A stretch of 64,000 bases of DNA from an uncultured candidate division Zixibacteria bacterium (GTDB taxonomy: Bacteria > Zixibacteria > MSB-5A5 > UBA10806), in assembly GCA_963817915.1 (NCBI GenBank), contig CAWFQL010000012.1, positions 544,001 through 608,000 on the forward strand. The letters run 5' to 3'. Positions within the stretch are counted from its first letter, which is position 1. The number at the start of each line of letters is the position of its first letter. The position numbers were made by a program. Positions 24,001 through 27,000 of this stretch are shown in pieces.

Positions 24001-27000
24001 TATGGGCGACAGGCAGGATATGGCTCAGGGTCCCGGAAACCATGAAGATCGTATTAAAGGGACATTTGAACAGGGGAGTATTCGCGAAAGATATTATTCT
24101 GAATCTAATTCGCGATATTCCGGTCAGCGATGTTGATTATAGGGCGATTGAATTCTCCGGCCCCGCCATTCAAGCGATGTCAATGGCTGATCGTTCAATC
24201 TTGACAAGTATGGCCTCCGAAATGAAGGCGAAATCTGCGATCATTTCAATCGATGAGATGGCATCGAGATATATGAAGAAAATTACAAAGATGAAATTCT
24301 GGCCGATAACGCCTGATCCCGATGCCGCCTATAGCCATGAAATCGAATTTGATATTTCCTATCTGACTCCGCAGATCGCCTGCCATGCCGGGGCCAACAA
24401 TACACGTCCTATCGAGGAAATGGTTGGCAAAAAAATTGACCAGGTAATATTGGGCAGTTGTATCAATGGGAAAATCGAGGATCTCGAAATCGCCGCCGGT
24501 ATTTTAAAAGGACGAAAAATCAATCGCGAATTGCGGATGACAATTGTACCGGGTTCGAGAAAGACATACCTCGAGGCTCTCGAAAAGGGGTTGATCAAGA
24601 TATTCGTTGAATCCGGCTGCGCGGTTGCGTATCCCGGACTCGATTCGTATTCGGGAGTCGATGATAGCATCCTATCTTCCGGGGATAAAATAATGACTAC
24701 GACCGGTTATCAAACCGATATCGAAAATGATAACGTTAATTCCGAGATATTTATTGCCTCCCCGGCAACCACGGCAGCCTCGGCGCTCGAAGGTATAATT
24801 GCCGACCCGAGGAAATATATCAAATGAAACGAACGATTGAAGCCACTGCGCAGCGACTGAGCGACAATATCCAATGCAAAACGATCCTTGCCGAAAAATA
24901 TTGGCTGAATAGCTCGATTTCTGAGATTACGCAACATCTCTTTGAGGGCTATGCAGTCAAACATCCGCCTCGAATCGCGGAAGGCGATGTTATTGTAGCC
25001 GGGAATAATTTTGGAAGCGGAGTATTTCACGCCAATACGGTTAACGGACTCAAGGCTTTAAAGGTATCGTGCATAATCGCATCTTCCATTAATCGTATTT
25101 TCTTCCGCAATGCCATAAATATCGGCCTGCCGCTGGTTATCAACAATCAGGCCTATGATAAAATCGAATCCGGCGAATTAATAAAGATTGATTTTGAAAA
25201 GGGAGTAATATCGTGCAAAAAAGGCTCGCTTTTATTTCCACCATATCCGGATTTCATGCTAAGGTTCCTCAGTGCCGGCGGCCTGATTGGATACGCAAAA
25301 AAGAAAATAGGCGCTTAGAAAAATAAATTTGATCGAATAATAACAAAAAAGGGCGAAAACATTCGCCCTTTTTATTAGAAACCTTTATCGCTTCTACTTC
25401 AATAATGTCATCCTCATCGTGTGAACATCCTTACCGTCGGTTATGCGATAGAAATATATTCCCGACGATACGGCATTCCCGCTATTATCGGTACCGTTCC
25501 AGGTAACCGAGTAGGAGCCTTTTTCCAATGAACTATTGACAAGATCCTTTATCAGCGAGCCGGTGATATTATAAACCGCAAGGTTTACATCTCCGCCAGC
25601 TGATTGGAAATTAATCTTGGTTTCAGCATTGAATGGATTCGGATAATTCTGGCTTAATGTAAAGTTGTCGGGCAGGGATGGAATTTCGACTATGCCCGTA
25701 GGCTGCCGAAGATCTGATACCGGTATTTTTGCGCCCTGAACAATGTGCTTGGCACCAGTTCCGGTTTGGTCGGACTGAACAAAGGCAATCAACTCGCAGC
25801 TATCGGCTACAATAGGACTCGGCGTGGTGAAACTGACTGCAAAGGTCGTATCATCGCCGGCATTAAGCGTGATTGCCAGGCCATTGGTGCCGGGAAACAT
25901 ATCTCTGAAGACGCTTTGGTGCCAATCTCTGCCATAAATTCCATTGTAATATATACCGGATTCGGTGAGAGCTATTCTCAATTTTAGGGAAGTATACCCG
26001 GGGGCTTCTTCCGCGACAATTCTAACCGAAACGACTCCCCTTAGGGAATCACGATCGAATGTGCCGGACAGTTGCATGAATAATGGCGAAGGAATCAGGC
26101 TTTCAGTTTCGATTCGTGTTTCATACTGCCCATAACTACTCGGAATGATGTTGCCATCAATCCTCATATAGGGGACATATGGAACGTTGTAATAGTTTTG
26201 AGTGCGAGTACGACAATCTGACATGTTGTAAAGCCAGAACATGTCATTGCCGGGGCTCGGCCACCACACATGGTAATTGATGAGCGCAAGAATATCTGCT
26301 TGCTCAATACGCAACCGATCTAAGACCAGATCGGCGGATGGACAATTGGGTCACGTAGTGCTGGTAAAATTTTCGCCAACCACCATTCTATCGGCGGCGA
26401 CGACGATGCTGCTCATACTAATTAGCGCTATGGCCATTAGCATCACAAATTTTTTCGCAACTGACATTAAGCCTCCTTTGGTGTCAATTTAGGGTTAATA
26501 TAACTTCTTTTCGGTTTTTTGCAACAATAAACATTTGCCCTTGTCAACTTCACATTCTTTAACTTGCTGTCTTTCAATGGCATAGCCGGATTTTTAAATA
26601 TCGCTCCGTCATTCATTTTTACGGTTTAGGGTAAGATCATCCAATATTTTATCGCCATATCTAAAATCTCGAAAAAACGGTGACTCTTGTTCCTCGAAAT
26701 GTCGCTCTCACCTGGCAGACTCCGGACGAGCAGAGCAATCCGCCTCGTTCACCACCATGGAAAACGATTAGCTCATGGGATTTAAATCTAAGGGTGGCTT
26801 CGACATATGCCATTTTCTTGGAATCACTTGAATACTTATTATTCGATTTTGATCCGCCGAAATTGATTTGAAACAAACTTCCCCGCGAATAGCCCAATAT
26901 AGCGTAATCCTCATGATATGATGGCAATTCATTTGGCCAGAATCGTCTCGAATAAAGTGTTGCCGATACTGTTTGTTTTTCATCGAGATAGTAATATCCG

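Follow-up and report, generated by a model that had tools for sequence, protein, structure and literature searches.

The selenoprotein family GOS_C was predicted in 2008 by Zhang and Gladyshev, with 74 Sec and 312 Cys sequences and a thioredoxin-like (Trx-like) fold (PMC2398784). Its members read ..DFTGLN-U-PYCP.. in Dataset S2 of that paper (PMC2398784), and the NCBIfam model NF045500 ('Omp28-related selenoprotein') corresponds to 'Hypothetical protein GOS_C', with the motif UxxC, in a 2026 review (PMC13188914, Table 1). The supplement to the deep-Sep paper likewise includes it in its table of families. A second close system is the surface protein HBP35 of Porphyromonas gingivalis. The insulin-reducing thioredoxin activity of HBP35 requires C48 and C51, and the protein's C-terminal domain has a part in its reaching the outer membrane (PMC2907840); the HBP35 literature also includes PMC3120885. 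For bacterial SECIS (bSECIS) elements, the published constraints are a loop of 3-9 nt with a G within the initial two positions, a stem of 4-16 bp, a position 16-37 nt from the UGA, and an MFE of -7.5 kcal/mol or lower (PMC13188914, Fig. 2 legend). Here, we compare with these systems a gene from a Zixibacteria genome that lies in a stretch of 64,000 nucleotides (the window). Positions 25394-26467 very probably make up one gene, whose product is an exported selenoprotein and forms a divergent branch of the Omp28-related/GOS_C family.

Gene Structure

Gene callers split this single gene in two at the in-frame TGA of codon 39 (TGA39). The earlier note had claimed one continuous frame with the TGA near its start, and re-reading of the sequence gave the same frame with the same codon counts on both sides (Table 1). 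Pfam and NCBIfam matches of the encoded protein extend across both sides of TGA39. The terminator-like hairpin behind the stop codon is weak on its own, with one such element in the region and a mean of 1.6 in shuffled sequences, and a promoter scan at the locus gave 4 sites where 3.0 were expected, which is no evidence of a promoter.

Table 1. Features of the selenoprotein candidate gene and its two upstream neighbors, in window coordinates.
Feature	Position	Strand	Remarks
Whole gene	25394..26467	-	357 codons + stop in a single frame, TGA39 read as selenocysteine
ATG start	26467-26465	-	38 codons precede TGA39, 318 follow
Shine-Dalgarno-like AAGGAGG	26472..26478	-	4 nt ahead of ATG 26467; read from sequence
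In-frame TGA, codon 39, read as Sec	26351..26353	-	First position of UxxC (FTSTT-U-PNC)
TGT, Cys42, resolving residue of UxxC	26342..26344	-	Invariant in 48/48 aligned sequences
SECIS-type hairpin GCCGAUCUG-GUCU-UAGAUCGGU	26314..26335	-	9 pairs, loop GUCU; begins 15 nt past the UGA
Predicted signal peptide, residues 1-25, MSVAKKFVMLMAIALISMSSIVVAA	26393..26467	-	By eye; helix 3-17 in AF2 model
Trx-like alpha/beta domain, residues 26-125	26093..26392	-	AF2 model; Foldseek 5y1a, 2axo
Beta-sandwich, residues 129-249	25721..26083	-	AF2 model; within Pfam Omp28 match 90-250
Type IX type A C-terminal sorting domain, residues 275-357	25397..25645	-	PF18962, TIGR04183
Intrinsic-terminator-like hairpin + T run	25346..25373	-	3' of stop; weak on its own
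DUF6029, predicted outer-membrane barrel, ends in SRF	26661..28109	-	Upstream gene; invariant Cys460 and Cys465
Exported AhpC-TSA/Redoxin (TlpA-like), WCKPC	28110..28652	-	Upstream gene

Predicted Protein Fold and Export

The AF2 model of the window protein has a pLDDT of 89.0, and Foldseek returns HBP35 (5y1a) as its top PDB match (E 1.6e-15), which reproduces the best match given in the earlier note. The two proteins share a three-part build: a Trx-like domain comes first, then a beta-sandwich and last a C-terminal domain of the type IX kind. In both, the active-site motif lies near the N-terminus, as a CxxC-type site in HBP35 and as UxxC in the window protein, HBP35 having Cys where the window protein has Sec. 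They align with a TM of 0.56/0.63 over 351 columns at 15% identity. The next-best fold match is the DUF1223-type structure 2axo (E 4.2e-9, TMt 0.65); the N-terminus of the window protein matches the DUF1223 profile (PF06764) weakly, at 20.7 bits and under the Pfam cut-off, and DUF1223 proteins, unlike this one, are without a type IX tail. The Pfam Omp28 profile (PF11551) is matched at 47.6 bits (cut-off 34.9), whereas NF033782, the Omp28 family outer membrane lipoprotein, is matched at 47.1 bits against a cut-off of 150. The window protein differs from the Omp28 family in that its signal peptide, as judged by eye, is of the plain kind with no lipoprotein signal, its C-terminus is a type IX tail, and Sec replaces Cys.

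The putative signal peptide shows typical n-, h- and c-regions when judged by eye, and because it appears cleavable, the selenoprotein would be exported through the Sec route. The C-terminus matches Por_Secre_tail (PF18962; 31.5 bits, cut-off 27) and TIGR04183 (37.2 bits, cut-off 23), and through this type A domain the type IX system would take over the protein, to be either displayed at the cell surface or released from it. Components of that machinery are encoded in the genome, with matches to PorU (688.1 bits, cut-off 420) and SprA (741.7 bits, over its cut-off); the GldM profile TIGR03517 had no match in this genome and, in the control, none in any genome either, so that this negative is uninformative. 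Genome-wide matches numbered 150, of which 148 were to the C-terminal part only. The active site is predicted to be U39-P-N-C42 in the Trx-like domain. By analogy with HBP35, the protein would act outside the cytoplasm as a selenol/thiol-disulfide oxidoreductase. The description in the earlier note, a UxxC selenoprotein with HBP35-like thioredoxin fold, signal peptide and type IX tail, is supported by the TGA column, the hairpins, the Sec genes, the model, the profiles and, for the signal peptide, inspection by eye.

The TGA Column among Relatives

The codon-39 column holds TGA in 71 of 88 same-phylum relatives and TGC or TGT in the remaining 17, in agreement with the previous alignment of the TGA to the first Cys of the CxxC motif. 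Such recurrence in one column is far beyond chance. The relatives are kin, so that the statistics overstate their independence. Each matched domain of the TGA relatives holds exactly one TGA, and in a wider match table, by our own count, 95 of 138 entries carry one TGA, 42 none and one a TAA. Positions C39 and C42 of the active site are invariant in all 48 full-length sequences. The nearest relative in the tree (L014, from genome G261) has TGA rather than Cys, and the exchange between Sec and Cys has been repeated in the family, the tree requiring at least nine changes. In a second gene of this genome, at C12:166652-168061, the column is likewise TGA (TNTG-U-SYC); the gene codes for Omp28, DUF1223 (41.3 bits, cut-off 30.7) and Dockerin_1 domains, which bears out the report of an Omp28-related paralogue with dockerin repeats and an in-frame TGA.

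A SECIS-Type Hairpin

The stem-loop said to follow the UGA at a distance of 15 nt was recovered at 26335-26314. It resembles the bacterial SECIS type, of which the fdhF element of E. coli is an example. The bSECIS constraints were applied in our own implementation, in a strict version with a contiguous stem (PMC13188914, Fig. 2 legend). The window hairpin (-11.6 kcal/mol, 9 pairs, 24 nt from UGA to loop) satisfies all four constraints. Of the 71 Sec forms, 49 pass, compared with none of the 17 Cys forms; among 1420 shuffles, 44 pass. The strict test is failed by 22 Sec forms, among them the paralogue of this genome, whose hairpin had already been called weaker. Over the 57 nt after the codon, the mean MFE is -16.4 kcal/mol in the 71 Sec forms vs. 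-9.5 kcal/mol in the 17 Cys forms. An Rfam scan of 26150-26500 returned a chance snoRNA match only (E 2.1) and no matching SECIS model.

Among the TGA forms, the hairpin follows one of three designs, each particular to a clade. In these designs, 95.1%, 81.9%, and 88.1% of cells are paired and 3, 3, and 4 pairs, respectively, have changed on both sides, against 16-66% pairing in slid controls; the structures were derived from the very sequences used for these counts. The first values are those of the window design, taken over 25 relatives. The hairpin region also codes for the conserved peptide ADLVLDQ and is therefore partially self-complementary; Cys forms laid on design A are 63% paired on average, and 3 of the 17 reach 85% or more. 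Compared with the bacterial SECIS consensus, three different sequences serve three clades of one protein family here. For SECIS evolution, this means that one protein retains Sec under three SECIS designs, with repeated exchange between Sec and Cys.

Probable Selenocysteine Insertion and Alternative Readings

The genome encodes a complete Sec gene set (selA, selB, selC, and selD), with selA, selB, selD and tRNA-Sec clustered at 196-203 kb of contig C6. SelA is matched at 393.8 bits, the SelB wing domain at 61 bits and selD, which carries one in-frame TGA of its own, at 357.4 bits; the tRNA-Sec (anticodon tca) was detected by ARAGORN. TGA terminates 247 of 893 long open frames and is a normal stop in this genome. 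Given the Sec gene cluster, the otherwise ordinary role of TGA as a stop, the column pattern and the hairpins with compensatory changes, the active-site residue at TGA39 is almost certainly selenocysteine, in a secreted surface protein of thioredoxin-like type. UGA39 would be decoded by SelB and Sec-tRNA(Sec), and SelB would be recruited by the hairpin that lies 15 nt downstream, within the coding region, as expected of a bacterial SECIS.

Gene callers and public databases give truncated forms, with 59 of 120 listed matches starting past the motif, and this would agree with TGA39 being a true stop, as would the normal use of TGA as a stop here. The locus would then hold a 38-residue peptide followed by an N-terminally truncated protein from TTG 26314, the start that gene callers give, or a pseudogene. 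However, the truncated protein would be without signal peptide, first beta strand and active site, its TTG sits in the 3' arm of the hairpin, and no ribosome-binding site is seen there. The 38 upstream codons are conserved and the family models align over the TGA; moreover, 71 relatives have TGA in this one column, with Cys opposite in every case, and a pseudogene would not be so maintained. We consider termination at TGA39 very unlikely. Other systems show near-cognate insertion at their Sec codons, and such a reading of UGA39 as Cys or Trp, at least under selenium limitation, is only marginally less unlikely than termination. The Cys found in 17 of 88 relatives implies that a Cys product would be functional; against this stand the complete Sec gene set, a selD that itself requires Sec decoding, and SECIS-type hairpins that are maintained with compensatory changes in the TGA forms only. 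A sequencing or assembly error for TGC or TGT is the least credible of these readings, to the point of being negligible: the assembly is called error-prone by the earlier note only, and the public contigs examined are without the TGA site, but the same codon recurs in the same column, with a matching hairpin, in the paralogue and, across 35 other genomes, in 69 further genes.

Relation to the GOS_C Family

The best NCBIfam match of the window protein is NF045500, at E 4e-13 and 49.4 bits, far below the cut-off of 200; residues 24-270 align to model positions 36-288. None of the 285 genomes of this phylum reaches the NF045500 cut-off, so that the NCBI pipeline would not name this protein. A Trx-like fold with UxxC in its N-terminal active site is shared with GOS_C (..DFTGLN-U-PYCP.. 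vs. ..NFTSTT-U-PNCP.., the motif compared by eye and the fold taken from the model), and Cys homologues are common in GOS_C/NF045500 as they are here. True NF045500 members for a residue-level alignment were found in 0 of 3 and 0 of 20 genomes, and the identity of the column with that of GOS_C is therefore based on the by-eye comparison of motifs. Apart from its low score, the window gene differs in a SECIS sequence that is specific to its clade, and its product ends in a type IX tail, whereas the two GOS_C sequences examined end in acidic repeats.

The proposal that the family is absent from current catalogues finds no support, in view of NF045500, the GOS_C prediction of 2008 and the deep-Sep supplement table; the window gene belongs, as a divergent branch that is mis-called, to a catalogued selenoprotein family of a kind already predicted in 2008. 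The further claim of a first selenoprotein among type IX cargo is weakened by positions ~270-377 of the NF045500 model, which match the type IX tails of many proteins; however, the literature searched contained no paper linking the two subjects. The literature search likewise returned no paper that joins Omp28 with a selenoprotein or names an 'Omp28-related selenoprotein', and in the accessible portion of the BSepDB supplement, Zixibacteria appear in the genome list and 'Omp28', 'NF045500', and 'GOS_C' were not found.

Upstream Genes

The Redoxin and DUF6029 genes (Table 1) lie upstream in 12 of 12 extended loci (families f1, f2, f4, and f18), and the barrel residues C460 and C465 are invariant in all 12 DUF6029 barrels. 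The DUF6029 barrel and the TlpA-like redoxin, whose genes come just before it, probably work together with the selenoprotein. A full three-part relay is a more speculative and rather improbable extension: the exported TlpA-like redoxin, the barrel with its Cys pair and thioredoxin-like proteins with Sec or Cys, one to five in number and exported by the type IX system, might bring reducing equivalents through the outer membrane and up to the surface, with the selenoprotein outermost and Sec chosen as staying reactive in an oxidizing exterior. No paper describing a redoxin-DUF6029-selenoprotein cassette was found in the literature search. If the cassette is a functional unit, it would give bacteria a route for thiol/selenol chemistry on their surface.

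Representation in Databases

This family branch is systematically truncated in public databases. The split of database matches given in the earlier note (44 with the CxxC motif, 37 starting after it and 38 fitting neither pattern) was not reproduced; among the 120 matches listed, 58 have C..C in the two motif columns, 59 start past the active-site motif and 3 show neither. With entries truncated in this way and a curated NCBI model that does not reach the branch, a whole group of exported selenoproteins from the phylum escapes selenoproteome counts. A contig search with the pattern QNYPNPFN gave 79 further loci that were rejected, nearly all of them being unrelated type IX cargo because the pattern came from the type IX tail. 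Among the closest matches listed, the six that carry a name are labelled Candidatus Zixiibacteriota or candidate division Zixibacteria.

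Reading Frame and Domains

With its in-frame TGA (codon 39) read as selenocysteine (Sec, U), the Omp28-like gene of the window is a single reading frame encoding 357 residues (MSVAKKFVMLMAIALISMSSIVVAADRMVVGENFTSTT-U-PNCPSADLVLDR...). The mechanical ORF list splits it into two pieces, of 38 codons (starting at 26467) and 306 codons (starting at TTG 26314), as a gene caller would. An earlier note had described this split, and the frame, the codon and the hairpin beginning 15 nt 3' of the UGA were all recovered as it had them (see table). Pfam assigns Omp28 to residues 90-250 (47.6 bits, cut-off 34.9) and Por_Secre_tail to residues 275-348 (31.5 bits, cut-off 27), with a weak DUF1223 match at residues 32-71. 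Among the matches listed, 43 of the 59 database entries that start after the motif begin at query residues 49-67; these scattered starts are partly explained by the TTG, whose first base is also the final paired base in the 3' arm of the hairpin.

Coordinates of the features discussed (window positions unless a contig, locus or residue is named)
Feature	Position	Strand	Remark
Omp28-like gene	26467-25394	-	single frame; ATG 26467, stop 25396-25394
AAGGAGG box	4 nt 5' of ATG 26467	-
In-frame TGA	26353-26351	-	codon 39
SECIS-type hairpin	26335-26314	-	GCCGAUCUG-GUCU-UAGAUCGGU
TTG	26314-26312	-	ORF-list start of downstream piece
Terminator-like hairpin	25373-25346	-	with T run, 3' of the stop
DUF6029 protein	26661-28109	-	upstream; ends in SRF; abuts redoxin gene
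AhpC-TSA/Redoxin protein (TlpA-like)	28110-28652	-	upstream; signal peptide, WCKPC
PD40/Omp85 protein	28952-32113	-	upstream
Aconitase-family ORF	23229-24827	+	TTG start
Dockerin-tailed paralogue	C12:166652-168061		same genome
selB, selA, selD, tRNA-Sec	C6:~196500-202500		one cluster outside the window (loci L001, L002, L069)
Alpha/beta domain	strands 29-35, 60-66, 100-103; helices 42-55, 76-92, 112-123		residues
Beta-sandwich	129-249		residues
Disordered linker	258-278		residues
C-terminal beta domain	283-355		residues
Hairpin design A	15 nt after UGA		families f1, f2 and window gene; GCUGAUCUG-GUCU-UAGAUCAGY
Hairpin design B	same place as A		family f16; GCGGC-AGUU-GCCGC core
Hairpin design C	27 nt after UGA		families f18, f4; CUCGAUC-AGUU-GAUCGAG
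Cys forms keeping the design A stem	L015:2065-2130; L021:2086-2151; L024:3283-3348	-
Tandem arrays (examples)	G252:C1:794145-798630; G227:C12:2237-6939; G265:C51:8085-12723		genomes of the same phylum

Decoding of the TGA Codon

Four agreeing lines of sequence evidence, namely the Sec machinery, the use of TGA as a stop elsewhere, the column in relatives and the RNA structure, indicate that TGA39 is very probably a selenocysteine codon and the gene that of a selenoprotein, a reading which the earlier note had proposed. The genome (93.9% complete) encodes SelA (393.8 bits), a SelB-specific wing domain (61 bits) inside a 629-codon frame, tRNA-Sec with anticodon tca and selD (357.4 bits), all on contig C6 at 196-203 kb. 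The selD gene has one in-frame TGA of its own, so that the Sec system depends on its own activity for its production. A change of the genetic code is not indicated, since TGA is otherwise an ordinary stop, terminating 247 of the 893 open stretches of at least 400 codons.

The N-terminal 266 residues were searched against all 285 genomes of the phylum (E <= 1e-10), giving matches in 43; of 138 tallied, 95 had exactly one TGA, 42 had none and one had TAA. From 50 loci then taken, frames bounded by TAA or TAG were all aligned to an HMM built from 59 sequences (the query and 58 database matches) with Cys in both motif columns, two further fragments that do not cover the column being left out. Among 88 distinct relatives the U39 column holds TGA in 71 (Sec forms) and TGC or TGT in 17 (Cys forms), with a single TGA per matched domain. 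The alignment also places the TGA of the paralogue (Omp28, DUF1223, Dockerin_1) in this column, as had been claimed. Relatives carry tandem arrays of three to five Omp28-like genes in which Sec and Cys forms are mixed; in the genome under study these genes are single copies in two places.

SECIS-Type Hairpins

Folding of the 57 nt that follow the codon gave mean energies of -16.4 kcal/mol for the Sec forms (n = 71) and -9.5 kcal/mol for the Cys forms (n = 17; Mann-Whitney p = 2e-8, overstated because the rows are kin). Three hairpin designs occur among the Sec forms. In gap-free alignments 95.1% (A), 81.9% (B) and 88.1% (C) of cells form standard pairs, compared with 16-66% when the 3' partners are slid by 1-3 columns, and pairs changed on both sides number 3 (5 cells), 3 (10 cells) and 4 (13 cells), respectively. 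The bacterial SECIS consensus has been given as a loop of 3-9 nt with G in its first two positions, a stem of 4-16 bp, a distance of 16-37 nt from the UGA and an MFE of -7.5 kcal/mol or lower (PMC13188914). Applied strictly, with contiguous stems only, these constraints are passed by 49/71 Sec forms, 0/17 Cys forms and 44/1420 shuffles; the window hairpin passes (-11.6 kcal/mol, 9 pairs, loop GUCU, spacing 24) and that of the paralogue fails. Counting against the Sec reading, the window hairpin overlaps a conserved peptide, and Rfam gave no match for it.

Three Cys forms keep at least 85% of the design A pairs, but their loops no longer begin with G; these are probably relics of SECIS elements after replacement of Sec by Cys. 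The 88 domains were also placed in a quick maximum-likelihood tree, from which the Sec/Cys column had been excluded. It requires no fewer than 9 Sec/Cys changes (15.7 for shuffled labels), and well-supported branches force 8 of these. Cys forms are scattered within Sec clades, and the closest relative of the window gene, L014 from a genome of the same family, is a Sec form. The tree has no outgroup and thus gives no direction of change; the relic hairpins favor Sec to Cys.

Relation to Known Selenoprotein Families

Among NCBIfam models, "Omp28-related selenoprotein" (NF045500) scores best, with 49.4 bits (cut-off 200; E 4.1e-13) and residues 24-270 aligned with model positions 36-288. This family, equated with GOS_C in a 2026 review (PMC13188914), was described in 2008 (PMC2398784): it comprised 74 sequences with Sec and 312 with Cys, had a Trx-like fold and carried SECIS-like elements. 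The deep-Sep supplement lists it in its table of families as well. The GOS_C sequence in Dataset S2, ..VEDFTGLN-U-PYCPAAS.. (PMC2398784), has the same motif context as the window protein and is very near design B relatives such as ..LEIFTATN-U-TYCPFAA... The window protein is related to this catalogued family and would act in a similar way, but scores below the curated threshold, which none of the 285 genomes reached; it is therefore a mis-called new member and not, as the earlier note suggested, a family absent from catalogues. That it would be the first selenoprotein cargo of type IX secretion likewise finds no support: in the phylum search NF045500 positions ~270-377 match the type IX tails of many proteins. 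Our literature search found no paper linking type IX secretion with selenoproteins. The gene is a clean, well-controlled example and marks an annotation gap; the functional question it leaves is its cassette, rather than the Sec codon.

Structure, Export and Gene Neighborhood

An AlphaFold2 model from an alignment of 47 full-length Cys homologues (pLDDT 89.0, pTM 0.69) puts both U39 and C42 where the first helix begins. The top Foldseek PDB match is HBP35 of Porphyromonas gingivalis (5y1a; E 1.6e-15, TM 0.56/0.63, 351 columns), followed by the DUF1223-type protein 2axo. Export by the type IX route is plausible from the encoded components, PorU (688 bits, cut-off 420) and SprA (741.7 bits summed). 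A whole-protein search of the genome gave 150 matches, 148 to the C-terminal sorting part alone, which suggests that this 3.3 Mb genome encodes a very large set of type IX cargo proteins.

In loci of four families (f1, f2, f4, f18), a DUF6029 homologue immediately precedes the Omp28-like genes. Redoxin and DUF6029 genes are present in the same order in 12/12 extended loci (L081-L092), 6 of which have a PD40/Omp85 gene farther upstream; the dockerin-tailed paralogue is without a DUF6029 neighbor. Wzi-like barrels are similar to DUF6029 by HHpred (PMC9603273), and C460 and C465 are invariant in 12/12 aligned DUF6029 barrels. One might imagine a relay from redoxin through the DUF6029 barrel to the surface selenoprotein; no paper on this cassette was found in the literature search. 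On the opposite strand, the Pfam domain of the aconitase-family ORF begins only at residue 178, and the first ~170 residues of its frame are unexplained and may lie 5' of the true start.
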